38,728 nucleotides of DNA from IMG/VR virus record IMGVR_UViG_648231705_000004; one strand, given 5' to 3'. The notes below the pieces were generated by a model. The model ran no database searches. It saw nothing but the letters and a program-made list of their open reading frames with translations, and was not told where the DNA came from. Position 1 is the first letter of the stretch, and every line of letters starts with the position of its first letter. This document shows positions 1 to 38,728 of the stretch, one piece after another. Source of the DNA: a virus. Taxonomy: Duplodnaviria; Heunggongvirae; Uroviricota; Caudoviricetes. The translations under genes and the position numbers were made by a program.

Positions 1-162
1 ATGACTACTCAAAACAATAAGCATGATAGCCTGGATTACTCAGAAAAGCCCAAAAGCAAGCACATCGTGACGTTCGAGCGCGATTCCGGTAGAAAAGGAG
101 AATCGTCTTCCTCTGCCAATAAAACCACTATGCCGGCAGCCCCTGCCCCAGGGAAAAAATAA
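1..162 (+). CDS. hypothetical small hydrophilic protein (53 aa); could be 3' part of a longer gene
   Basis: ATG at window position 1, open to TAA at 160-162 (below the ORF-track size cutoff). No upstream context visible; convergent with the membrane-protein gene. Confidence 0.35.
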   Translation: MTTQNNKHDSLDYSEKPKSKHIVTFERDSGRKGESSSSANKTTMPAAPAPGKK

Positions 163-165
163 ACA

Positions 166-798
166 TCATTCATCGTTCGTTGCACGAACGCGCCTGATCT
201 CCACTCTGGCAATCTGATCTGCTGGAATATAGGTTGCCAGAGCTCCCCAGTACTTATCAACCACGCCTTTATACTCTTCCCATTCGTTACTGCCTGAAGG
301 GCTGCTGTGCGTGACGTAAAGAACCATATCGCCTTTATTCCCCAGGGTAAACGGACCGTTAGGCCACTCTTCAAAGTTCCCTGGCAGCCGTGACATCATA
401 CCGGAACCATCGCGAAGAATCACTCTGACCTCGGTAACGCTGAAGCCTGTTTGATCAAACATTGCCTGCCATGCTGAGCTGGTATCGTCAGACCATGAAA
501 TATCATTATTCCACAGTAATCTGTACATCCATTTGCGACCGTACCTGCGCCACCACGCACCGCATGTAACGGCACACAGAAGTGCTGGTGGTGTTGCCAG
601 CCAGGCATTCAGACCTGCCCACATAACAGCCTGGTAAGCCATCATTGCTGTCAGGCCAAAAATCAGCGAAGAAAAAGTCACCTCAATGGGCTTGTGGTGA
701 TCCTTCAGTCCCACATTCGCAATAAAATACCCAATATAGCCACTGGTCAGGGTCACCAGTGTTGCCCATGGCAGATTTAACAACGAAACGTCAAACAT
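166..798 (-). CDS. membrane protein of unknown function (about 3 predicted TM helices plus ~110-aa C-terminal soluble domain); candidate moron
   Basis: ORF 166..876(-); internal ATG at 798 preceded by GGGAG (cagggagaaaatATG). Hydrophobic N-terminal segments. Lies downstream of the terminator that follows the Mor-like gene. Confidence 0.6.
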   Translation of the reverse strand: MFDVSLLNLPWATLVTLTSGYIGYFIANVGLKDHHKPIEVTFSSLIFGLTAMMAYQAVMWAGLNAWLATPPALLCAVTCGAWWRRYGRKWMYRLLWNNDISWSDDTSSAWQAMFDQTGFSVTEVRVILRDGSGMMSRLPGNFEEWPNGPFTLGNKGDMVLYVTHSSPSGSNEWEEYKGVVDKYWGALATYIPADQIARVEIRRVRATNDE

Positions 799-835
799 AT
801 TTTCTCCCTGCATCCTGAATACTAAAGAGAGAGCA

Positions 836-870
836 TAAAAAAAGCACGGTAAGGGGTCTACCGTGCTTTT
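836..870. terminator. bidirectional Rho-independent terminator after the early operon
   Basis: A-tract, stem GCACGGTA / TACCGTGC with 7-nt loop, then T-tract; reads as a terminator on both strands. Confidence 0.55.
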
Positions 871-912
871 ATACAATAAGGAGATTTTTGAAAGGACTTT
901 AACAAGCAGGAA

Positions 913-1735: not shown

Positions 1736-1940
1736 CGTTGCTCCTTTTACCTGCGCCACCGATATAATCGACATATAAAGGAAGCGCCACAGGCCAGCAC
1801 AGGAACATCACCGACCAGCTAATCCAGTAGCCAGCACCACTGTAACGTGAATAAAACCCTGAACGGCGGTGCAGTTCAGCAGTACACCAACCGACAAAAC
1901 AATACCAGAACAGGGCACATACAACAGATTCAGCCGTCAT
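1725..1940 (-). CDS. small membrane protein (2 predicted TM helices)
   Basis: Internal ATG (1940) of ORF 1725..2096(-) preceded by a G-rich stretch; two hydrophobic segments; tightly packed in early operon. Confidence 0.35.
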   Translation of the reverse strand: MTAESVVCALFWYCFVGWCTAELHRRSGFYSRYSGAGYWISWSVMFLCWPVALPLYVDYIGGAGKRSNDDD

Positions 1941-2160
1941 TCTGAATATCCCCCCAACTGATATGAATATTACGGGCAGCAATGACAGGGTCGTTATTCC
2001 ACCATGCACCTGACATGTATTTTTCAACCTGTTCGCGTCCGGCAATAACACCAATTGTGATCCCCGGCCTGACGTTCTTAAAAAAGGCGCGGGCAAAAAG
2101 GTATCTGGCAGATATTCGGCAGGCTTTTAATTTCCGGCTTTTACCTGATAGCGTAATCAT
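1930..2160 (-). CDS. hypothetical early protein (76 aa)
   Basis: ORF whose ATG overlaps the stop of the upstream gene (ATGA coupling at 2157-2160). Confidence 0.4.
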   Translation of the reverse strand: MITLSGKSRKLKACRISARYLFARAFFKNVRPGITIGVIAGREQVEKYMSGAWWNNDPVIAARNIHISWGDIQNDG

Positions 2161-2840
2161 CTGGCCTCCAGTTTCTGTTGTTCCTGCCCACTGACCGGGC
2201 GGTGCAGTCTGACGTTCTGCCCTTCAAGAAACCCCGCATAGCGCGAGGCGTCGCCATTGCGGCTTCTTCCCGGTTTACGCGCCCTGGTGGTTTGCGTCTG
2301 CGGGTATTTATGTTCCAGCCACTGCTGCATCAGTTCACGTTCGTCATCGGTCAGGGCGAAGGACTGTATTTCACTGATAACGGCCAGCACCCAGCCTTCA
2401 GCAAACTGGTCACCACGGCTGGTACGGGTGGCAGTTTTTATTCTTTTGTTCTGTGCGCTGATATATTGCTGACGCGCCTTTTTCAGCTGGCGGGCCAGCA
2501 CTTCCCAGGTGTACGCAGCCAGTGCAGCCCGTTCCCGGTTGCCGTAGAACCCCACACCCGGATATGTGCCGGGGTGAATGATGGAGTTAACACCAAATGC
2601 CTCGCGGATGATGTTCATCAGGCCCAGCATGTAGCGCGGTGGACGGAGGCTGCCTGTCGGCCAGTAGTGACTGATGGTTTCATCAATATCACTCATGGCG
2701 ATGTCGGAATGTGTGATGCCGTGAACATCCATCAGTTTACGGGCACGGCGCAGTGCCAGAGCGGCCTCGTGAGGGTTGCCGGATGCGGCCAGCGCCAGCA
2801 ACTTTTTCAGTTTCTCAATGTGTTTATCCTGGTCTGTCAT
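2157..2840 (-). CDS. conserved phage early protein (227 aa; N-terminus resembles DUF2786-type proteins)
   Basis: ORF with GGAG RBS; N-terminal motif IEKLKKLLALAASGNPHEAALALRRARKLM; start overlaps upstream stop. Confidence 0.65.
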   Translation of the reverse strand: MTDQDKHIEKLKKLLALAASGNPHEAALALRRARKLMDVHGITHSDIAMSDIDETISHYWPTGSLRPPRYMLGLMNIIREAFGVNSIIHPGTYPGVGFYGNRERAALAAYTWEVLARQLKKARQQYISAQNKRIKTATRTSRGDQFAEGWVLAVISEIQSFALTDDERELMQQWLEHKYPQTQTTRARKPGRSRNGDASRYAGFLEGQNVRLHRPVSGQEQQKLEAR

Positions 2841-3711: not shown

Positions 3712-4242
3712 TTACTGCACATTCTGCTCAAAAGGAATTATTGAAAAATCCTCAATATCACTTTTTATGGTAATACCGGGAATATTTTTCACGGCGTCCT
3801 TTTCATTCAGGATGGCGTCTTTATTTATTTCCTCCTTTACACGGATAAAGCGCTCAAGCCCCAGACGTCTCAGTAATTCAATAACATTATCCGCCCCACG
3901 GATACTGACTGATGGCGGACGGTTTCGCCACTGCACCTCGCCGGTGGTGAGGTTAGCGAACTTCACCTTCCCGTTGCCGGTCAGTTCATTACGGTGTGCC
4001 TCACACCATGTCTGAATACCGGACTGCAGTTCGGCCATGCGTTTTTTCAGGCTCTCGGTGAGCGGGGCATAACGTGCGGTGATGTCGCCAATGGTGTCAT
4101 TCATTTCTGTTTCAGCCCTGACCAGTTCACGTTGCGCGTCACCAAGCAGTCTGATTCCCTCAATGACCTCTTCGCGTGTCCCCGGCACCCAGAGTGCTGC
4201 TGCGGCTTTGATACGTTTTGCCCCTTTTGTACTTTTTGCCAT
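3712..4242 (-). CDS. gam: host-nuclease inhibitor Gam (Mu Gam / Ku-like DNA end-binding protein)
   Basis: 176 aa; from memory, matches Mu Gam along its length (e.g. ...ETEMND...WCEA...VRPPSVSIRG...GITVKSDIEDFSIIPFEQ); GGAGGA RBS. Confidence 0.9.
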   Translation of the reverse strand: MAKSTKGAKRIKAAAALWVPGTREEVIEGIRLLGDAQRELVRAETEMNDTIGDITARYAPLTESLKKRMAELQSGIQTWCEAHRNELTGNGKVKFANLTTGEVQWRNRPPSVSIRGADNVIELLRRLGLERFIRVKEEINKDAILNEKDAVKNIPGITIKSDIEDFSIIPFEQNVQ

Positions 4243-4541: not shown

Positions 4542-5708
4542 TTAAACCCCTTTGACAACGTCAGCGTTGACCTGTGGAACCCCGATTTCAGCGGCCAGAT
4601 TCATGGCGGCTATTACCAGGTTACTGACGGCCAGCGGATACAGCAGGCTGACCATATTTTTACGATGACTTCCCGGATTGCTCAGGCGGGCACGTATGGC
4701 ATCCACTGCGCTGGCGTCCATAATGTCCGTCAGTTGTTTACCGGCCCGTTGCAGTTTGAACGTCAGAAACTCTTCAAGGTTATTGTCCAGAGGCAGAAGT
4801 TCGACCACCTCACAGCGCTGAACGACTTCACGGACTTCCATATTGCGTTCAGACAGTTTTGTCGCCAGTTCCGGCTGGCCAATCAGCACGATGGACAGCA
4901 GTTTTTTGAAACCGGACTCCAGCTCAAAAAAGCGTTTGAGGTGTTTCAGTGTCGGAATAGGCAGACTGTGGGCCTCCTCAATCACCAGAACGTGGCTGAA
5001 CCCCGCCTGGCTGCTGTCTTTCAGGACGCGATGCAACTGGCGAAAGCGGGCGTCCTGACTGCGTCTGATGCTTTCCAGTGGTGCGATGGTACTGATAATG
5101 GCTTCGGCAATCGCTGCTGCCTTCAGGGTTTTCCCTTTCACATCGTTGTCTTCCATAGCGATGATGTATGGCTCGATAACAATTACCGGCGCATTCTCGC
5201 GGTTGATACGTTCAGTCAGGTCGCGGCGCAGCGTGGATTTACCCGCACCGGACTCACCGATGACGGCCATAAACCCACCATGACGGGCTGTCTGGTACAA
5301 CGCCTCACGCACGTAGCGAATGTCCGGGGTGGTGAACACATCATCAGAACCCTGAATGGCTTCGTCGGCGAACGGGTCACGGAAAAGACCAAACGCTTTT
5401 TTGGTTGCTGGAAATAACACCTGTTTTTTGAGTAACATATTCTCTTCCTCACTGAGGCTCGTTTTATCTGTGGTACCCGCTGTACGGGGCGTGGCCGCGC
5501 CCTGTACAGCATCAAAACTCTTCGTTGTATCAATCCCCTGACTTTCCAGCCAGGACGCAAGACGCCGGCGCACTTCTCCGGGGCTGGTGCGGGGCCACGC
5601 GTTATGATTCACAATCTGGGCCAGCGTGGCCTCAGAAACATCGACAGCTCTCGCCACCACCGCCTGTGGAATACGGGCCTCTTTCAGTTGCTGCTTCAGT
5701 ACCAGCAT
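4542..5708 (-). CDS. MuB-like AAA+ ATPase (transposition target-DNA activator)
   Basis: ORF 4542..5747(-); likely start ATG 5708 with GGAGGG RBS; Walker A GESGAGKST; N-terminal HTH-like region; immediately downstream of the transposase as in Mu A-B. Confidence 0.88.
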   Translation of the reverse strand: MLVLKQQLKEARIPQAVVARAVDVSEATLAQIVNHNAWPRTSPGEVRRRLASWLESQGIDTTKSFDAVQGAATPRTAGTTDKTSLSEEENMLLKKQVLFPATKKAFGLFRDPFADEAIQGSDDVFTTPDIRYVREALYQTARHGGFMAVIGESGAGKSTLRRDLTERINRENAPVIVIEPYIIAMEDNDVKGKTLKAAAIAEAIISTIAPLESIRRSQDARFRQLHRVLKDSSQAGFSHVLVIEEAHSLPIPTLKHLKRFFELESGFKKLLSIVLIGQPELATKLSERNMEVREVVQRCEVVELLPLDNNLEEFLTFKLQRAGKQLTDIMDASAVDAIRARLSNPGSHRKNMVSLLYPLAVSNLVIAAMNLAAEIGVPQVNADVVKGV

Positions 5709-5718
5709 GTTTCCCTCC

Positions 5719-7488
5719 TCAGTTGCCGTTAACAATGCTGATAACACTGCTGCGGGCCGGTGTGGTCAGCGTGGCCATGACTTCATCCAGTGCGGCTTCC
5801 GGTACGCCGTCCGGGTACTGTGCCGTTAACTGGCGGTAATGTTCCGGCGTCCAGGTAAGGCCGTCGGCGCTGAACTTATCGCGCAGGGCTTTCGCGGCCT
5901 CCACATGAGTCATGGGACGTTGTTCAGTGCGCGGCCCGCGTACGTCAGAGGCCTGACCACGCTTCGGCATATAGGCCGGAAGTGTGGTGTCGTCGATATG
6001 TTTATACGGGTCAAGCCGCCCGCCGAACGGCAGCGCCTTCGCCTTGCGTGCGGCAGCTGCATCTGCGGCGTTGTCTGTACCGGTGACCAGCGCTTCGGTT
6101 TCTTTTGCCGCCATCTGCGCCGGGGTTTCCGGCAGGGCTTTGTAACTTTCGCCAAATACCGCCGCGCCTTCAGCAAAGCCAAACTCGTTCTTTCTGACCT
6201 CTTCGACCAGGAAGAACGTCTCGTGGCCGTCCTCACCGGTCAGAACCACCTGTGCCACATCGCTGCGCCACGGGTTACGGGTAATCATCAGTTTTTCACC
6301 AACCAGTACGCCCGGTACCGTTGATACGTCAAATTCAGTGCCCCGGAACGAGACACGAAGTTTTGGCGTGACTTTGCGGAGTTCTGGTGCCGCCACAGCC
6401 AGTTCACGGCATACCTCAACGGAAGGCGCTTTTTTCAGCTGCTCAGCAGTAATCTTCAGCCAGATATCCGTGCGGGTTTTACCGTGGCGGCTGTGAACAG
6501 CCGTGGCGTTAAAGTGGCTGCGCCATTTCGCGGCCAGCGCGTTGAGTTCTTCCAGACTGTGAACCGGCCGGAACTTCAGACCCGGCTCCAGCTTGCGTTC
6601 GATAATGTCACGCGCCTTTTCCACCTGTCCGGTGGCGCGGGCGTTATGCGGCTTGTGCGCTATCAGGTCAATGCCCAGTGAGTGGCACATGTTTTTCGTC
6701 ATACCCGCGGTGTTTGCCGAGCCGGGGTCGAGATAGAGTATTTTTGGCACGCCGTGCAGCACGTCTGCGCCGCCACGCTCCTGCATGGCGTTGATAAGCA
6801 CAGAACACAGGTTCTCACCGGATTCCGCACCCGTCACATACTCAACGTAAATCCAGCCGCTGGCATGGTCGGTAATCTCGTAACTCCACACGCGGTCACT
6901 GGCGATACGGGCAAGGTTAGCGGGTTTGTTCTTGTAGAACTTCGCGCTGTCCATCACCTGCAGCCCTTTGTGTCCATTGCTCAGGTAGTAAAGCGTGCAG
7001 AGAGAGGCATCAATCTGCCAGACATGATTGGGATGCAGACTGGCCACTTCGGTATGCGGCGCAGGGGCATCCAGTTGTTCCGGGTGCAGGCCATAGTTAC
7101 GCAGGGCTCGGCTGATGGCATCTTCGGACAACGGGAAAAACTCACCGGTGGTTTCATCTGTTCTGCCTGCGGTGATAAAGCCGTTAGCCCGCAGGGTTTC
7201 CACTGCATCTGCGATGGAATAGAGACGCTTACCGTTCTTGCGGGTGGCCTCACGCAGTGTGGCAGATATCAGCGCGGCTTCGTCGCGGGTCAGGGCGCTG
7301 CGCCCGGCATCGGCGCGTTTTTTGCGTTTATCAGTCACAGAGACCTCCTTCAGCCTGCGCAGCAGAGTGGCGCGGGACATGCCAAGTTCAGCACAGGCAG
7401 CGTCGTATATTGCACCGCGTTTACCATGCCCCGCGTCACGTGCCGCGCGGGCGACATAAACCAGTCGTTCAGTCAGGGCAGCATTCAT
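5719..7488 (-). CDS. DDE transposase (Mu A-like / rve integrase-core family)
   Basis: 589 aa; N-terminal HTH, central catalytic core with conserved acidic residues (HVWQIDAS..., ...LYLDPGSANT...); GGAGG RBS; followed by the ATPase gene. Confidence 0.92.
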   Translation of the reverse strand: MNAALTERLVYVARAARDAGHGKRGAIYDAACAELGMSRATLLRRLKEVSVTDKRKKRADAGRSALTRDEAALISATLREATRKNGKRLYSIADAVETLRANGFITAGRTDETTGEFFPLSEDAISRALRNYGLHPEQLDAPAPHTEVASLHPNHVWQIDASLCTLYYLSNGHKGLQVMDSAKFYKNKPANLARIASDRVWSYEITDHASGWIYVEYVTGAESGENLCSVLINAMQERGGADVLHGVPKILYLDPGSANTAGMTKNMCHSLGIDLIAHKPHNARATGQVEKARDIIERKLEPGLKFRPVHSLEELNALAAKWRSHFNATAVHSRHGKTRTDIWLKITAEQLKKAPSVEVCRELAVAAPELRKVTPKLRVSFRGTEFDVSTVPGVLVGEKLMITRNPWRSDVAQVVLTGEDGHETFFLVEEVRKNEFGFAEGAAVFGESYKALPETPAQMAAKETEALVTGTDNAADAAAARKAKALPFGGRLDPYKHIDDTTLPAYMPKRGQASDVRGPRTEQRPMTHVEAAKALRDKFSADGLTWTPEHYRQLTAQYPDGVPEAALDEVMATLTTPARSSVISIVNGN

Positions 7489-8774: not shown

Positions 8775-8963
8775 TCAGGCTGCCTGAGCTGTTGATTTCA
8801 GCCCCAACTTCACGGCGATTTCATGGGATTTACCGTAACGGGCTTTGGTCTGCCCATTGAGAACGCGGTATACCTCATTGCGGTTGTAGCCGTTTTCTTC
8901 TGCCCAGCGGGTGAAAGTGATCCCGCGCTGGCGGAAGAGAGCTTTGACTTGTTCTGCAGTCAT
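8775..8963 (-). CDS. small HTH DNA-binding protein in the Ner position (Ner/Cro-like)
   Basis: 62 aa; AGGAG RBS; first gene of the minus-strand early operon, divergent from the repressor gene. Confidence 0.6.
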   Translation of the reverse strand: MTAEQVKALFRQRGITFTRWAEENGYNRNEVYRVLNGQTKARYGKSHEIAVKLGLKSTAQAA

Positions 8964-9063
8964 CGTTGTCTCCTTTGTTGATGCAATGATGTTTGCCTTA
9001 TGTGTGATAGATTATGGTGCAGATTACCTCACCAGTCAACTTAAAGAGTGCAGAAAAACTCAC
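8964..9063. promoter_or_regulatory. divergent early/repressor promoter-operator region
   Basis: 100-bp AT-rich spacer between the divergent Ner-like and repressor genes, with repeated GATTAT/GATTAC and TGATG motifs; equivalent position to Mu operators and transposition enhancer. Confidence 0.45.
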
Positions 9064-9402
9064 ATGATCGGGTTACGTATTAAAGAAGAAAGAGAGCGTC
9101 TATCTCTTACACAGCAAGGGTTGGCTGATGCTATAGGTGTGGCAAAGAGAACTTTCATTGATTGGGAAAAAGATCGCACTTCTCCTACTGCAGTGCAGTT
9201 ATCTGCACTATCAGAAATCGGTGTAGATATTTTGTATGTAGTTACTGGGGTGCGGAGTCAGCCTGTTGTTGCACCTTATGTGTCACAAGAAAAGAAAGAG
9301 TTAATGGATGCATTCGACGAAATGAGCCCCGAACAACGGAGGGCAATTCTTGAGGTCGGCAAAGTCTTCATTCAACCCAAACCAAGCAAACTCGCAGGCT
9401 GA
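9064..9402 (+). CDS. HTH XRE-family (CI/C-type) repressor, putative lysogeny repressor
   Basis: ORF 8911..9402; likely start ATG 9064 (MIGLRIKEERERLSLTQQGLADAIGVAKRTFIDWEKDR... classic XRE helix-turn-helix); divergent from early operon. Confidence 0.75.
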   Translation: MIGLRIKEERERLSLTQQGLADAIGVAKRTFIDWEKDRTSPTAVQLSALSEIGVDILYVVTGVRSQPVVAPYVSQEKKELMDAFDEMSPEQRRAILEVGKVFIQPKPSKLAG

Positions 9403-9487: not shown

Positions 9488-9519
9488 ACCGGAAAGCATT
9501 GTGCTTTCCGGTTTTGTTT
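9488..9519 (+). terminator. Rho-independent terminator downstream of repressor gene
   Basis: Stem ACCGGAAAGC / GCTTTCCGGT, loop ATTGT, followed by TTTTGTTT. Confidence 0.55.
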
Positions 9520-10283
9520 CAGAAGTTGCAGATTACCAGTTCACGGCGCGGCGTGGATTTCCCCGCCAGACTGTAGTTGATGTTCACTGTCTGTATGTTC
9601 AGTCCAGTGAACACCTCGCGCATCTGTGGGATATCGTTCACCGAAATTATCATTTTTCCTCTGATGCACCGGGCCAGCTCTGCCAGCCGCGAGTAGTTCC
9701 CTTCAGGAAAATCCACACCATAGCCTTCCGTACCCAGGTACGGTGGGTCGCAGTAGAACAGTGTGTGCGGACGATCATAACGCTCAATGCACTGTTGCCA
9801 GTCCATGTGTTCTATGACTGTTCTGGAAAGCCGCAGGTGTGCTGTTGACAGTTCTTCTTCAATACGCAGCAGGTTGAAGCGTGGCGGGGATGTGGTGGAG
9901 GTACCGAAGCTGTGCTCTGCCACCTTGCCGCCAAACGCCTGCTTCTGAAGGTAGTAGAACCGTGCCGCACGCTGGATATCCGTCAGTGTTTCTTCCGGGG
10001 TGATCTGCAGCCATTTGTAGATCTGACGGCTGACCAGCGCCCATTTGAACTGGCGGACAAATTCTTCCAGGTGATGCTTTACCACCCGGTACAGATTCAC
10101 CAGTTCACCGTTGATATCATTAATGACTTCGATCTTGCCGGGTGTCTTAAGAAAATAGAGCGCTGCTGCCCCACAAAACGGCTCCACATAACATTCATGC
10201 GCCGGAAACAGCGGCAGAATGTGTTTTGCAAGGCGGCGTTTGCCACCAATCCATGGAACGATGGGTAATGTCTGCATTTTCAT
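9519..10283 (-). CDS. DNA adenine methyltransferase (Dam-type N6-adenine MTase)
   Basis: 254 aa; AdoMet-binding motif EPFCGAAALYF and catalytic DPPY motif (FYCDPPYLG). Confidence 0.9.
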   Translation of the reverse strand: MKMQTLPIVPWIGGKRRLAKHILPLFPAHECYVEPFCGAAALYFLKTPGKIEVINDINGELVNLYRVVKHHLEEFVRQFKWALVSRQIYKWLQITPEETLTDIQRAARFYYLQKQAFGGKVAEHSFGTSTTSPPRFNLLRIEEELSTAHLRLSRTVIEHMDWQQCIERYDRPHTLFYCDPPYLGTEGYGVDFPEGNYSRLAELARCIRGKMIISVNDIPQMREVFTGLNIQTVNINYSLAGKSTPRRELVICNF

Positions 10284-10388
10284 AATCTGTAAGCCTTTTA
10301 CAATTACTAAAAATATGGCAGGCTAGTCTGGTCTCGCGAGACTGACTGAACCTCGGTCGGCTCACAGTGCATTCCTGTGGGACGATGG

Positions 10389-10426
10389 CCAGCCCGGATT
10401 TCGGGTTCCGGGCTGGTCGTTCTTTC
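10389..10426 (+). terminator. orphan terminator-like hairpin (possible end of a small plus-strand transcript)
   Basis: Perfect 10-bp stem CCAGCCCGGA / TCCGGGCTGG, 8-nt loop, followed by TCGTTCTTTC; no plus-strand ORF upstream. Confidence 0.35.
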
Positions 10427-10472
10427 ATGATGCGGCAGGGATAGTGGGATTTCTGTTAATGTGGTTTAGGGA

Positions 10473-10688
10473 TTATCCGGGGCGATTTTCTGACCTTATC
10501 CGGTCCAGGGCATAAGTAATACCTTCTGCAAAAACAGAAGTATCAAACTGCTTTTGTATTCCCTGAAAATGAAAAGCGGCACGACAGACACTCAGTTCTC
10601 CGCGATGTAACCGGATAATATCTTCCAGAACATTGTTCACTGCTTCAGCACGGCGCTGATGTTCTGTTAACGTTAATCGGGGATTCAT
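10473..10688 (-). CDS. hypothetical protein (71 aa), accessory block
   Basis: Strong RBS AAGGAG 7 nt upstream of ATG 10688; no recognisable motif. Confidence 0.5.
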   Translation of the reverse strand: MNPRLTLTEHQRRAEAVNNVLEDIIRLHRGELSVCRAAFHFQGIQKQFDTSVFAEGITYALDRIRSENRPG

Positions 10689-11091
10689 GATGCACTCCTT
10701 AAATGATGATTTTTATGCACTCACCGGCAAAATATTCTGCCGATTACTGAACACGCATCCGGCACCTCAGGTTTTGATTTATTCTGGTTTTTTCGATATC
10801 CCGGACCAGGTTGATCACGACCAGAAAAAGTGCCGGTATTTTATTGATACGCTGATATGGCTTCGGGATAACAGCTATATTCGTTACTCTCAGTTGCTGG
10901 CTGTGGGAGCGGCTGATGTCGTCCTCACGGAAAAAACGCTCCGTCTGCTCAATGCCACGCCGACCCTTCTGCAGCCCCGGCCCGCACCATTTAAAGAGTC
11001 ACTTCTGGATGCAGTAAAAACCGGTGAAAATGCAGTCATCGCTGAATGCGTATCCCGGATTATGCGTTACGTGTTTAATGAACGTAAGTGA
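10687..11091 (+). CDS. hypothetical protein (134 aa), accessory block
   Basis: ATG 10687/10690 preceded by GGGGA; start codon overlaps that of the divergent 71-aa gene; fills the 378-bp gap between the two minus-strand genes. Confidence 0.5.
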   Translation: MMHSLNDDFYALTGKIFCRLLNTHPAPQVLIYSGFFDIPDQVDHDQKKCRYFIDTLIWLRDNSYIRYSQLLAVGAADVVLTEKTLRLLNATPTLLQPRPAPFKESLLDAVKTGENAVIAECVSRIMRYVFNERK

Positions 11092-11810
11092 GGTTTATCC
11101 GCTGTCTGCATAATCCCGATAGCCAGTGCGAGGGGAAGTAATTCCGGGGAAACTCTTTCAAACAGCGACTCCCATTCTCCTCTCGCCATCACTCTGTCCA
11201 GCCCGCCCCCCAGTTGCATTTCAGCAATCTTCCTGATTTCCCGGAACAACGCCGCTTTGATCTCTTCGTGCTCAGCTTTATTTTCCGGTGTCAGAATGTA
11301 TTCGTCGAAGAACCGGGGAGGCTGGTTAACGGGGAGCGTGTTCACCGGGATGTGTTCCTGTTTCCCGTACTTCGGGGCAGAAAAACATTCTGTTGGCTGA
11401 CCGGTGAGTTTACGTAGCTCCTTCATGAGCAGCTCCTGATCGTAAACTGTCATCAGTGCCGCAATGGTGGCATGCAGTGCATCGGGCAGTATCCAGGGTT
11501 GCCGGCCCGTGGGGCATATAACATCCAGCAGCTCATTCGTCCGACAGATACGCTCCTCGCCGTATGACAACAGGCCCTGTCCCGTGTATTCCTCCAGCCT
11601 GATCACTGTGCCACCCCGTGGCTTCTGCCAGGTCGTCAGATCATCGCCACTCATACGCCGCTCATCATCTACGTCTGCAGCATCGACAATGACGCTGCCC
11701 CCGAATTCCTGTTTCACCACTTCCTCTATCCGCGCCAATATGTAACTTTTACCGCTGCCCACAGGACCGGACACGGTGACAGTGATGACCGGATTCAGTG
11801 TCTGCGTCAT
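11067..11810 (-). CDS. P-loop NTPase / small kinase-like protein (247 aa), function unknown
   Basis: GAGGAG RBS; N-terminal Walker A GPVGSGKS followed by VIVDAAD strand, as in P-loop kinases; C-terminal ~150 aa unassignable. Confidence 0.7.
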   Translation of the reverse strand: MTQTLNPVITVTVSGPVGSGKSYILARIEEVVKQEFGGSVIVDAADVDDERRMSGDDLTTWQKPRGGTVIRLEEYTGQGLLSYGEERICRTNELLDVICPTGRQPWILPDALHATIAALMTVYDQELLMKELRKLTGQPTECFSAPKYGKQEHIPVNTLPVNQPPRFFDEYILTPENKAEHEEIKAALFREIRKIAEMQLGGGLDRVMARGEWESLFERVSPELLPLALAIGIMQTADKPHLRSLNT

Positions 11811-11940
11811 ATCGTATTCTCCTCTGTGAATAATTCATCGTTTATCCTGCACATCCCGTATCCCCGGCTCTCTTAACGCGCTTTAAAATCCTTCGCGCCC
11901 TGTATTTGTGATGCTGTCTCCACCAGACAAGGAGACACAC
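11811..11940. promoter_or_regulatory. divergent promoter region (first late promoter and promoter of the P-loop gene)
   Basis: 130-bp spacer between divergently oriented genes at the start of the plus-strand late cluster; no sigma70-like -35 recognised, as expected for Mor/C-activated promoters. Confidence 0.4.
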
Positions 11941-19217: not shown

Positions 19218-19343
19218 AACCGCCTCCGGTTCACCGCATTGCTTTCCCTGTCCTTCTCCCCTGATGTTTTCTAAAGCAGATTAAAATCGCCGGGCCTGCA
19301 TTTCTCACAAACTGTCTCCGACAACATAACGCGGGACAGCAAA

Positions 19344-25167: not shown

Positions 25168-25190
25168 GGGGCTCCGGCCCCTTCTTCTTA
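25168..25190 (+). terminator. short GC hairpin + T-rich tract (weak terminator) preceding a probable internal late promoter
   Basis: GGGGC tccg GCCCC followed by TTCTTCTT; next gene starts at 25258 with its own RBS. Confidence 0.35.
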
Positions 25191-25257
25191 ATCTCCTTTA
25201 ATATCCGTCACGCGCTTCTCCCGACATACTGCCCTGAACTTACACAGGAGCACAATC

Positions 25258-31796: not shown

Positions 31797-31850
31797 GCTT
31801 TTTAAACGCCTTTAATATCAGCGTTCCCGCACGGGGGCAATACTGCCCCC

Positions 31851-36321: not shown

Positions 36322-36783
36322 TCACGCCGCCCTCACGATATAGTTAAATGCGATATTGCGGGGGCGAGCTGATACATAAGCCCACCAGTCATATCTTTGT
36401 GCACCTTTAGAGGATGCATCAAATATCCACTTTTTGCCATTTATGACCCCCAGTTGATTAGAGGTTAAAGCGTCACCAAATCCGTATTGTGTAGAGCCGA
36501 GCGAACTGATATCTCCGGTATTATTATCATCAAAACCGGATACGATAGTCCCTTCCTGAAATGAAAGTACCGTACGCCCGGTATCAACCTTGCGACCACC
36601 GTCCCATCCACGGATAAACTCACCGCGCAAATCGGGAAGACGGAGGGTCGGGTAGACTCTGGCCAGAACAGGATATTGTTCTTTGGTGAACGTAGCTCCG
36701 TTGCACTGTAACCAGCCTGCTGGCGGTGTGGCGGTGGGCCATGGAACCGGTACACCAACAGGCAATGCAGAGCCTTCCCCCAA
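36322..36783 (-). CDS. alternative tail-fibre C-terminal variable segment (promoterless; expressed only after inversion)
   Basis: N-terminal ~60 aa nearly identical to residues ~449-510 of the plus-strand fibre (GEGSALPVGVPVPWPTATPP...LRLPDLRGEFIRGWD); both variants end in NYIVRA. Confidence 0.65.
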   Translation of the reverse strand: MGEGSALPVGVPVPWPTATPPAGWLQCNGATFTKEQYPVLARVYPTLRLPDLRGEFIRGWDGGRKVDTGRTVLSFQEGTIVSGFDDNNTGDISSLGSTQYGFGDALTSNQLGVINGKKWIFDASSKGAQRYDWWAYVSARPRNIAFNYIVRAA

Positions 36784-36854: not shown

Positions 36855-37427
36855 ATGCTGATTGGCTACATACGTGTGTCAACAAATGACCAAAACACAG
36901 ATTTGCAACGCAATGCATTAATGTGCGCAGGATGTGAACAGATTTTTGAGGACAAAATGAGCGGAACCAAGTCGGAACGACCAGGCCTGAAACGCGCTTT
37001 AAAGTGCCTTAAAAGAGGGGATACATTGGTGGTCTGGAAGCTGGATCGGTTGGGTAGAAGAATGAAACACCTCATTGCTCTCACAGAAGAGCTACGCGCA
37101 AAAGGTGTCAATTTTCGCAGTCTGACGGATTCAATCGATACCAGCACTCCGATGGGAAGGTTCTTTTTTCATATGATGGGTGCACTGGCAGAAATGGAGC
37201 GTGAACTGATAGTTGAGCGCACGCTGGCAGGACTGGCTGCTGCGCGAGCACAAGGGAGAGTTGGAGGACGTCGCCCGAAACTGACGAAGGAGCAGCATGA
37301 GCAGATCGCAAGATTGCTCCAGAAAGGGTATGACAGAAAGCGGCTGGCAATTATCTATGATATTGGACTGTCAACGATCTACCGCTACCACCCTGTTGGG
37401 ACTGTCATAACGCAACCTGAAATGTAA
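36855..37427 (+). CDS. serine-recombinase DNA invertase (Gin/Pin/Hin/Cin family)
   Basis: N-terminus MLIGYIRVSTNDQNTDLQRNAL with catalytic Ser; C-terminal HTH; ATG is codon 44 of ORF 36726..37427. Confidence 0.9.
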   Translation: MLIGYIRVSTNDQNTDLQRNALMCAGCEQIFEDKMSGTKSERPGLKRALKCLKRGDTLVVWKLDRLGRRMKHLIALTEELRAKGVNFRSLTDSIDTSTPMGRFFFHMMGALAEMERELIVERTLAGLAAARAQGRVGGRRPKLTKEQHEQIARLLQKGYDRKRLAIIYDIGLSTIYRYHPVGTVITQPEM

Positions 37428-37454: not shown

Positions 37455-37508
37455 TGGATGCCATTTATCGCACAAGATAGAGTGCATTTATCGCGCGGCG
37501 CATCAACA
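37455..37508. repeat. candidate transposase-binding terminal repeats at prophage right end
   Basis: Two direct copies of CATTTATCGC (about 37462 and 37486) just before the phage/host junction. Confidence 0.35.
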
Positions 37509-37549
37509 AATTTACCGCCGAACGCGCAGGCAAACAGTCGCTGGATGAT

Positions 37550-38728
37550 TTGATGAACAGTTCGCTGTATCTGATGCGCAGCGAATTGCGTGAGATCCCC
37601 CCACACGACTGGGGTAAGACGCTGAAAGAGATGGATTTAAATCTCTCTTTCGATCTGCGTGTCGAGCCACTGAGTAAATACCATCTTGATGATATTTCCA
37701 TGCACCGGCTGCGTGGCGGCGAAATTGTCGCTCTGGACGATCAGTACACTTTTTTGCAACGTATCCCGCGCAGCCACTACGTGCTGGCAGTTGGTCCTGT
37801 TCCTTATCTTTATTACCTCCATCAGATGCGATTGCTGGATATCGCCCTGATCGCTTTTATTGCCATTTCCCTCGCCTTTCCGGTGTTTATCTGGATGCGT
37901 CCGCACTGGCAGGATATGTTAAAACTGGAAGCAGCGGCGCAACGATTTGGCGATGGGCATCTCAGTGAGCGTATCCACTTTGATGAAGGTTCGAGCTTTG
38001 AACGACTTGGCGTCGCATTTAACCAGATGGCGGACAATATCAACGCCTTGATTGCCAGCAAAAAACAGCTTATTGACGGTATCGCTCACGAACTGCGAAC
38101 ACCGTTAGTGCGCCTGCGTTATCGACTGGAGATGAGCGATAACCTGAGCGCCGCCGAATCCCAGGCGTTGAATCGCGATATCAGTCAACTTGAAGCTTTA
38201 ATCGAAGAGCTGCTGACTTATGCCCGACTCGACCGCCCACAAAATGAGCTTCATCTTAGCGAACCAGACCTGCCGTTGTGGCTGTCAACGCATCTGGCAG
38301 ATATTCAGGCAGTAACGCCCGATAAAACGGTACGGATAAAAACGCTCGCGCAAGGCCATTATGCGGCGTTGGATATGCGCTTAATGGAGCGCGTGCTGGA
38401 TAATTTGCTCAATAACGCCCTGCGCTACTGTCACTCAACGGTTGAAACCAGCCTGCTACTGTCGGGGAATAGAGCGACATTAATTGTTGAGGATGATGGC
38501 CCAGGGATTGCCCCAGAAAACCGCGAACATATCTTTGAACCTTTTGTTCGCCTCGATCCCAGCCGGGATCGCTCAACCGGCGGCTGCGGGCTGGGGCTGG
38601 CAATTGTCCACTCTATAGCACTGGCAATGGGCGGTACGGTTAATTGTGACACCAGCGAACTGGGTGGTGCCCGCTTCTCGTTCAGCTGGCCGTTATGGCA
38701 TAACATCCCGCAATTTACCTCTGCCTGA
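37550..38728 (+). CDS. rstB: sensor histidine kinase RstB, 5'-truncated fragment (gene interrupted by the prophage)
   Basis: From memory, matches E. coli RstB from about residue 30 onward (KFTAERAGKQSLDDLMNSSLYLMRSELREIPPHDWGK...); HisKA box HELRTPL and ATP-binding G-box GGCGLGLAIV present; no RstB N-terminus upstream. Host-derived sequence starts at ~37508. Confidence 0.9.
   Translation: MMNSSLYLMRSELREIPPHDWGKTLKEMDLNLSFDLRVEPLSKYHLDDISMHRLRGGEIVALDDQYTFLQRIPRSHYVLAVGPVPYLYYLHQMRLLDIALIAFIAISLAFPVFIWMRPHWQDMLKLEAAAQRFGDGHLSERIHFDEGSSFERLGVAFNQMADNINALIASKKQLIDGIAHELRTPLVRLRYRLEMSDNLSAAESQALNRDISQLEALIEELLTYARLDRPQNELHLSEPDLPLWLSTHLADIQAVTPDKTVRIKTLAQGHYAALDMRLMERVLDNLLNNALRYCHSTVETSLLLSGNRATLIVEDDGPGIAPENREHIFEPFVRLDPSRDRSTGGCGLGLAIVHSIALAMGGTVNCDTSELGGARFSFSWPLWHNIPQFTSA

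Follow-up and report, generated by a model that had tools for sequence, protein, structure and literature searches.

A convergent gene pair at the left end of a BcepMu-type prophage

The DNA analyzed here, IMG/VR virus record IMGVR_UViG_648231705_000004 (38,728 nucleotides; Caudoviricetes), is referred to below as the window. Its first 912 positions carry two convergent genes, which encode a predicted three-helix membrane protein and a 53-residue microprotein, together with the intrinsic terminator that ends the early operon (Table 1). By the content of its open reading frames (ORFs), the window is a BcepMu-type transposable prophage. Its early operon ends, as the first-pass annotation of the sequence had noted, with a Mor-like gene, and its late genes start at about 11.9 kb on the plus strand.

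The prophage DNA is present in many Escherichia coli chromosomes at differing sites, such as rstB in strain 83972 and gspL in DA33135. When these two junctions were aligned, the sequences became identical at TGATCAGACATGAGATAAATG, 195 bp before position 1; the left end of the prophage (attL) is located 195 bp outside the window, where the phage end reads TGATCAGAC... and contains GAGATAAATG-type transposase-site repeats. Since the phage left end precedes position 1, both the small ORF and the membrane protein ORF are phage DNA, and they constitute the extreme left end of the phage. The window opens with the ATG of the small ORF, and the promoter of this gene and attL are located 43 to 195 bp upstream of position 1. 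The region missing to the left corresponds to window positions −195 to 0 (5805 to 6000 of locus L001). The right phage end is at position 37505, with matching terminal repeats and a target duplication ACAAAT, and the remainder of the window is host DNA from rstB, which is interrupted by the prophage. A small hairpin was observed within attL (L001, 5872 to 5890), outside the window.

Table 1. Features of the cassette, the early operon, and the flanking host DNA (window positions)
Feature	Position	Strand	Remarks
Microprotein gene, 53 aa	1-162	plus	RefSeq WP_001571575.1; convergent with the membrane protein gene
Membrane protein gene, 210 aa + stop	166-798	minus	RefSeq WP_000460689.1
Basic amphipathic linker and Sm/LSm-like beta domain (model), codons 98-210	169-507	minus	Predicted to be cytoplasmic
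Three predicted helices, codons 1-97	508-798	minus	
Ribosome-binding site GGGAG	804-808	minus	5 nt before the ATG of the membrane protein gene; from the sequence
Intrinsic terminator ending the early operon	833-870	minus	13-bp stem (840-870), then T7 (833-839)
Degenerate copy of the late-promoter motif	883-901	minus	2 nt too long; located after the Mor stop and before the hairpin; of doubtful significance
Mor-family activator	913-1311	minus	Final early-operon gene; Pfam Mor, 1.1e-43
GemA/gp16	1283-1774	minus	Early operon
Gam	3712-4242	minus	Early operon
MuB/ExeA-like	4542-5747	minus	Early operon
Transposase	5719-7488	minus	Early operon
Host DNA, 3' part of the sensor kinase gene rstB	37506-38728		HAMP, HisKA, and HATPase_c domains

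The gene pair as an accessory cassette

The cassette has a length of approximately 945 bp. Any allele of it detectable by blastn was found in 131 of 5426 complete E. coli genomes, and the related GemA-Mor segment was found in 639 of the 5426; more than 110 E. coli genomes contained an intact cassette that was at least 98% identical. In relatives of the sequence type 131 (ST131) kind, Mor is followed by about 160 bp up to attL and then by host DNA, with no gene in between. In relatives of the KP12/CFSAN051542 kind, the slot after Mor is occupied by a 109-residue gp27-family gene without a terminator (L030, 2617 to 2946; L027, 97 to 426). Because this gene occupies the same slot, the comparison marks the Mor-attL junction as a recurrent cargo site; whether other prophages of this type have different genes at this position was a check proposed in the first-pass annotation. 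The KP12 gp27-family gene and a 114-residue ORF of PhiKM were considered as relatives of the cassette and are unrelated to it.

Homology with cassette-less relatives breaks within the last ~13 codons of Mor. The GC content of the cassette is 47.8%, compared with 55% for the prophage, and the GC content at third codon positions is 0.50 to 0.52 in the cassette and 0.59 to 0.64 in the phage. Two marks of a moron, namely, presence or absence between homologous phages and a deviant base composition, were observed; as to a transcription unit of its own, a conserved sigma-70 promoter was predicted for the small gene and a terminator is located at the far end of the cassette, and no promoter was found for the membrane protein gene. 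Positions 1 to 912 are a horizontally mobile two-gene accessory cassette (moron) between Mor and attL. The moron-like nature proposed for the membrane protein gene is supported by its absence from most close relatives, its deviant GC content, and the terminator present in every Mu-like carrier. A core phage function, conserved in the relatives, is ruled out by the same absence and by searches that found no lysis or injection homology for the membrane protein.

Predicted fold and family of the membrane protein

The mechanical ORF of the membrane protein reaches a TTG at position 876, and the start at the ATG (position 798) is backed by the GGGAG ribosome-binding site and by the N termini of all homologues. 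The first-pass annotation had described a protein of 211 residues at 166 to 798, with about three N-terminal helices and a ribosome-binding site of its own; the coordinates and this site held, the helices were recovered by AlphaFold2, and the length was corrected to 210 residues. In the AlphaFold2 model (34-sequence alignment; mean predicted local distance difference test score of 84.7), the helices comprise residues 11 to 28, 37 to 60, and 65 to 97, and a beta-rich domain comprises residues 119 to 205. Five lysine or arginine residues are found right after helix 3 and two in loop 1, and none are present in the N terminus or loop 2. This charge distribution, in combination with the positive-inside rule, suggests that the N terminus is outside and the C terminus inside, in which case the C-terminal domain would be cytoplasmic. 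The gene is under purifying selection, with ratios of nonsynonymous to synonymous substitution rates (dN/dS) of 0.09 to 0.19.

The modeled C-terminal domain, which had gone unrecognized in the first-pass annotation, consists of an N-terminal helix and a strongly bent five-stranded beta-sheet that can be superposed on Sm proteins, and the fold of the model is Sm/LSm-like. Foldseek E-values against Sm/LSm/Hfq proteins and WYL-type SH3-like barrels were only 0.05 to 0.3, and, in contrast to these proteins, the cassette protein is membrane-anchored. There was no Pfam LSM or WYL match for the protein, and a sequence search of the Protein Data Bank (PDB) returned chance-level matches only. A structure search of BFVD gave weak three-transmembrane (3-TM) matches to class III/LydA-type holins (E-values of at least 0.02). 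A holin or lysis protein was rejected as its identity, considering that the late and lysis genes are found at the other end of the genome and that most relatives lack the membrane protein gene.

There were 72 close homologues of the membrane protein, and a profile search retrieved 521 representatives at 50% identity, nearly all of them with 196 to 258 residues and a single architecture. The window protein itself matched no curated family and gave no hit to Pfam DUF6338 (PF19865) at an E-value of up to 1. When its relatives were rescanned against DUF6338, they scored 22.5 to 25.9 bits (gathering threshold, 26.5), and 16 of the 34 had E-values of up to 0.01. These matches were collinear, aligning protein residues 31 to 136 with positions 31 to 144 of the 205 in the profile. 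Judged from these alignments, the family is a distant, sub-threshold sister group of DUF6338. Searches of Pfam, NCBIfam, and PADLOC returned nothing for either cassette protein, and the PHROG matches were to families 12870 and 15726, both of unknown function. A literature search for the gene pair, the function of DUF6338/PF19865, the protein accession, and accessory genes of Mu-like or BcepMu phages retrieved no publication on the pair and no functional work.

In eight further enterobacterial genera, the gene was always found at the end of a Mu-like prophage, following GemA-Mor, and this held as well for phages that differ in their early regions. In Alphaproteobacteria, the pair of genes was found in other, non-Mu prophage settings, beside tail-fibre and Dam methylase genes. 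One cultured phage with a homologue was Synechococcus phage Ssp-JY41 (PP438431.1), the protein of which is 29% identical and encoded at the start of the record (1 to 744, minus strand). Two prophages of Serratia sp. Ag1 (L011 and L012) encode membrane proteins that are 89% identical (dN of 0.06). The gene is frameshifted into several pieces in Candidatus Phlomobacter and in some Bradyrhizobium genomes (L021, L022, and L024); the Phlomobacter copy is located in a Mu-like prophage in which the transposase, MuB, and Gam genes are fragmented as well.

A microprotein as conserved partner of the membrane protein family

The 53-residue hydrophilic ORF that the first-pass annotation had seen converging on the membrane protein gene is a RefSeq coding sequence. 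Its product has a pI of 9.7, a grand average of hydropathicity (GRAVY) of −1.4, and a tail that reads ...MPAAPAPGKK, and its end is separated from the stop of the membrane protein gene by a 3-nt gap. The same arrangement, that is, a hydrophilic ORF of 42 to 66 residues on the opposite strand with a stop that abuts or overlaps that of the membrane protein gene, was observed in 17 of 20 genome loci, with gaps between the paired stops of −25 to +17 nt (mostly −4 to +8 nt). It was also observed in every viral contig that extended far enough, except for one divergent contig (L059), and distant metagenomic members of the family likewise have a convergent ORF. The partner proteins can be aligned. Common to them are M[TS]xK at the N terminus, between one and three motifs resembling [SN][YFH]xPx[TS], and a proline-rich tail of the PPxPKK type that ends with lysine or arginine; examples are PPPSPKKK, PPAPLGKK, and, in the E. 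coli window, PAAPAPGKK. The proportion of nonsynonymous differences was far below that of synonymous differences (dN/dS of 0.14 to 0.25 for unsaturated pairs), which argues that the frame of the small ORF is under purifying selection. In the databases, every member of the small-protein family is annotated as hypothetical.

Related small proteins were found beyond the prophages. At the end of the Ssp-JY41 record (1925 to 2354, plus strand; L075), three tandem unannotated ORFs of 43 to 50 residues point towards the homologue, and their tails read APPPPKPKR, PPPPKPKR, and APPPPKR; if the record is a circular permutation, this trio and the homologue would also be convergent. By mass spectrometry, a proteogenomic study of Pseudomonas stutzeri detected the proline-rich proteins SEP1, SEP2, and SEP5, which had not been annotated, with 44 to 114 peptide-spectrum matches (PMC10433244). 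The lengths of the three are 36, 47, and 41 residues, with the tails PPPPKK, PPPPPKRDSK, and PPPPPKKGG. The corresponding genes are located directly downstream of the DUF6338 gene Pstu14405_RS12030, on the same strand, and the authors regarded the three proteins as species-specific (PMC10433244). We found that SEP1, SEP2, and SEP5 align with the window microprotein and its relatives, so that the pairing is general and at least some of the partners are translated. The P. stutzeri operon and the cassette also agree in that a protein of approximately 200 residues, with N-terminal TM helices and a C-terminal domain, is encoded next to proline-rich microproteins ending in lysine or arginine; they differ in that the window protein misses the DUF6338 model and that the small genes are co-directional in P. 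stutzeri and convergent here. Considering these comparisons, the small ORF is a conserved partner of the membrane protein family rather than an incidental neighbor.

Terminator, promoters, and predicted transcription of the cassette

The terminator between Mor and the membrane protein gene had been described as strong and bidirectional. It is strong, with an energy of −19.1 kcal/mol in the direction of the early operon, but bidirectional at best for this E. coli allele, in which the tail in the reverse direction is TTTTATAC only; other alleles have three T on that side. Every Mu-like carrier has a hairpin with a T-run in this place, and at least four stem sequences, unrelated to one another, were seen among them; in the non-Mu contexts, the hairpin was absent. 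An upstream terminator was therefore rejected as a universal feature of the module. Because the stems vary and yet are present in all Mu-like carriers and nowhere else, it looks as if the hairpin had been selected to insulate the membrane protein gene from the early promoter.

An alignment of nine enterobacterial alleles revealed a fixed order of hairpin and T-run, 35 to 55 nt, membrane protein gene, small gene, and a conserved block (CATTGAAAyCATCCTTC...ACTAGAATC) that precedes the small-gene ATG by ~40 nt. A promoter scan identified in this region TTGAAA-N18-TAGAAT, which matches 10 of 12 consensus positions and is located at window positions −72 to −43 (L001, 5928 to 5957). The scan called this promoter in E. 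coli and, independently, in Klebsiella, and its conservation extends over six genera; transcription is predicted to start about 36 nt before window position 1. The small gene is also preceded by the ribosome-binding site AAGGA, upstream of window position 1. In the alignment and the scan, the small-gene promoter is the only conserved predicted sigma-70 promoter of the cassette. The 35 to 55 nt between the hairpin and the ATG of the membrane protein gene were unconserved across alleles save for the purine-rich ribosome-binding site, and the claim that the membrane protein gene is separately transcribed was not borne out. The scan found no terminator between the two genes. Since their convergent stops abut and no terminator separates them, the two transcripts must overlap: as predicted from this layout, transcripts from the small-gene promoter would run antisense through the membrane protein gene until the hairpin, and those of the membrane protein gene would run antisense through the small gene.

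The motif TAA-N6-TTAAWATC was found before four late operons (11874 to 11890, 19272 to 19288, 25189 to 25205, and 31803 to 31819, plus strand). All four matches are exact, the chance expectation being 0.35 at up to one mismatch, and these sites are probably Mor-dependent late promoters. The window has one Mor/C-family ORF only and no C homologue. Upstream of the membrane protein gene, there was no match to the motif within one mismatch, and in the Klebsiella allele there is no room for a copy between the Mor stop and the hairpin.

Possible functions of the cassette

We tentatively favor the interpretation that the cassette is a conflict module expressed in the lysogen, in which the microprotein and antisense read-through would restrain a membrane effector. 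In the lysogen, the microprotein would be made constitutively from its own promoter, the terminator would shield the membrane protein gene from the strong early lytic promoter, and the antisense transcript reading through from the microprotein gene would keep the membrane protein silent. The microprotein itself, taken to be disordered and cognate to the membrane protein, would probably contribute by docking its proline-rich tail on the SH3/Sm-like cytoplasmic domain, which would keep the membrane protein closed. If this restraint were lost, for example, when an infecting phage shuts off transcription, the membrane protein would act on the membrane, with exclusion, abortive infection, or addiction as the outcome. 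We infer the topology, the binding between the two products, the toxicity, and the defence role, and superinfection exclusion or abortive infection is a guess.

Several observations weigh against this interpretation. The hydropathy peaks of the membrane protein are only moderate (Kyte-Doolittle values of 1.1 to 1.4), and neither the promoter scan nor the nine-allele alignment revealed a sigma-70 promoter for its gene, which may be silent in lysogens and expressed only by early lytic read-through. The PADLOC defence models gave no hit. The small genes of P. stutzeri are co-directional with, and downstream of, the DUF6338 gene, so that convergent antisense control cannot be universal, and the E. 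coli tail PAAPAPGKK has no clean PxxPxK motif. In the Serratia sp. Ag1 pair, the microproteins are only ~46% identical (dN of 0.46) and diverge much faster than the membrane proteins; by this comparison the partner is faster-evolving or swapped there, which fits an arms race and equally fits weak constraint.

It is rather unlikely that the membrane protein gene belongs to the lytic phase, being expressed at a low level by read-through past the early terminator, from a weak Mor-dependent promoter immediately before the hairpin, or by both routes. Its product would then serve to exclude secondary infections during lytic growth or modulate the membrane or the timing of lysis, and antisense transcription from the small-gene promoter would silence it in the lysogen. 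Such a role agrees with the orientation that the gene shares with the early operon and with the lack of a sigma-70 promoter between hairpin and ATG, and a homologue in a Rhizobiaceae prophage is located 30 nt after a Dam methylase gene without a terminator; the 3-TM part weakly resembles class III holins in the Foldseek search. However, the cassette is missing from ~80% of the related prophages and is therefore not needed for development, and the membrane protein gene is located outside the lysis cassette. In Mu, gene C follows mor and is Mor-dependent, and the membrane protein gene has the same position as C in the mor-Pm-C arrangement, whereas the phage studied here has no C homologue and just a degenerate motif of the Mor/late type. 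This motif copy would provide the promoter needed, but it has 2 nt too many and no T at −12, the Klebsiella allele does not contain it, and a strong terminator directly after a promoter would be an odd design. A Mor-controlled gene resembling C is kept as a minor alternative.

Other alternatives assign the leading role to the small gene. It is unlikely that the proline-rich microproteins are effectors, such as host-modulating or antimicrobial peptides, and that the membrane protein exports them, serves as their receptor, or confers immunity to them. The strong promoter does belong to the microprotein, the microprotein genes of P. stutzeri and Ssp-JY41 come in threes, in tandem, as is often the case for precursor or bacteriocin genes, and the authors of the P. 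stutzeri study mention the occurrence of DUF6338 in biosynthetic gene clusters and bring up an antimicrobial-peptide interpretation (PMC10433244). The microproteins have, however, no signal peptide, leader, or cleavage motif, the cassette encodes no modifying enzyme, and the 3-TM protein has minimal periplasmic exposure and no recognizable transporter fold; the P. stutzeri peptides came from samples in which membrane fractions were not analyzed. We consider it improbable that the small ORF acts in cis, in the sense that stalling at its proline-rich C terminus, dependent on elongation factor P, sets the reach of antisense transcription into the membrane protein gene, with the peptide being secondary. 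The stops abut or overlap in almost all loci, no terminator separates the genes, and in many tails PPP or PPPP directly precedes the stop; on the other hand, the tails of E. coli and several other enterobacteria have no run of consecutive prolines, the whole peptide is conserved with a dN/dS well below 1, and the peptides of P. stutzeri are stable and present in abundance, and their genes are co-directional with the DUF6338 gene. A selfish addiction module of the toxin-antitoxin kind, or a decaying passenger, neither of which would provide a benefit beyond its own retention, is very improbable. Its patchy distribution, its terminal location, and the frameshifted copies in symbionts and some Bradyrhizobium genomes would be as expected for such an element, but both genes are under purifying selection, the pair is retained across phyla, and the copies in more than 110 E. 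coli genomes are intact at 98% identity or more.

Comparison with known systems

A prophage moron is a known kind of element, and no described system matches the components of the cassette or their convergent pairing. The cassette resembles morons and exclusion genes such as lambda rexAB, P22 sieA/sieB, HK97 gp15, and T4 imm in being an optional insert with deviant GC content, a predicted promoter for one of its genes, and a terminator, in encoding a membrane protein, and in its location at a genome extremity. RexAB has two components, one in the membrane and one cytoplasmic, and the same division is predicted here. No sequence or profile similarity was detected between the cassette proteins and those of rexAB, sieA/sieB, gp15, or imm. 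In contrast to these systems, the promoter of the cassette belongs to the small gene and the genes are convergent, and, unlike injection blockers, the membrane protein has its large conserved domain on the predicted cytoplasmic side. Exclusion genes of a Pseudomonas Mu-like phage provide a literature precedent; they are not homologous to the cassette.

The arrangement of the genes is reminiscent of type I toxin-antitoxin systems such as par/fst of pAD1, in which the 3' ends overlap without a terminator in between and a membrane protein gene faces a strongly promoted partner. However, the antisense partner in the cassette encodes a conserved protein, and the membrane protein has 210 residues instead of the ~30 of the toxic peptide. 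A type II toxin-antitoxin operon, in which the toxin and antitoxin genes would be co-transcribed, was ruled out, since the genes are convergent. With respect to the predicted architecture of the protein, MscS channels have three TM helices, an N-out/C-in topology, and a long third helix that leads into a cytoplasmic beta domain, which SCOP assigns to the Sm-like fold class. The cassette protein has no alpha-beta domain and no PDB sequence match, and MscS was absent from the top structural hits; identity with MscS was rejected, and the likeness was kept as an analogy only. A bolder and unlikely proposal is that the pair represents a new phylum-spanning system, in which a ring-forming, Sm-gated pore of MscS-like layout would be shut by the microprotein and silenced by antisense read-through, and the convergent toggle would fire a membrane effector when host or prophage expression is disturbed. 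If so, the pair would found a new class of abortive-infection or toxin-antitoxin systems, with a microprotein family that has escaped annotation at its center.

The two-gene unit has been missed by both annotation and the literature. Microproteins beside DUF6338-like membrane proteins, considered species-specific in P. stutzeri, were found here in Gamma- and Alphaproteobacteria, marine metagenomes, and a cyanophage, and the carriers of the cassette include prophages of uropathogenic and ST131-related E. coli. Genes that abut at their 3' ends, a single strong promoter, and an insulating terminator form a compact and testable regulatory design. Should a role in defence or addiction be true, the cassette would add a new type of membrane effector and a new microprotein family to phage-host conflict; otherwise, a domain of unknown function has still been assigned a partner and a fold.

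Other features of the prophage

A Gin/Hin-type serine invertase gene (Resolvase and HTH_7 domains; 36855 to 37427, plus strand) follows the tail-fibre genes and adjoins an opposite ORF (36322 to 36783, minus strand); by analogy with Mu, this region is presumably an invertible host-range segment. An HTH_3 repressor-like gene is located at 8911 to 9402, and a D12-class Dam methylase gene (9519 to 10283, minus strand) is present between it and the late operon. The ORFs at 10687 to 11091 (plus strand) and 11067 to 11810 (minus strand) had no Pfam match, and the latter contains a GPVGSGKS P-loop. Positions 9519 to 11810 may represent a second accessory region.

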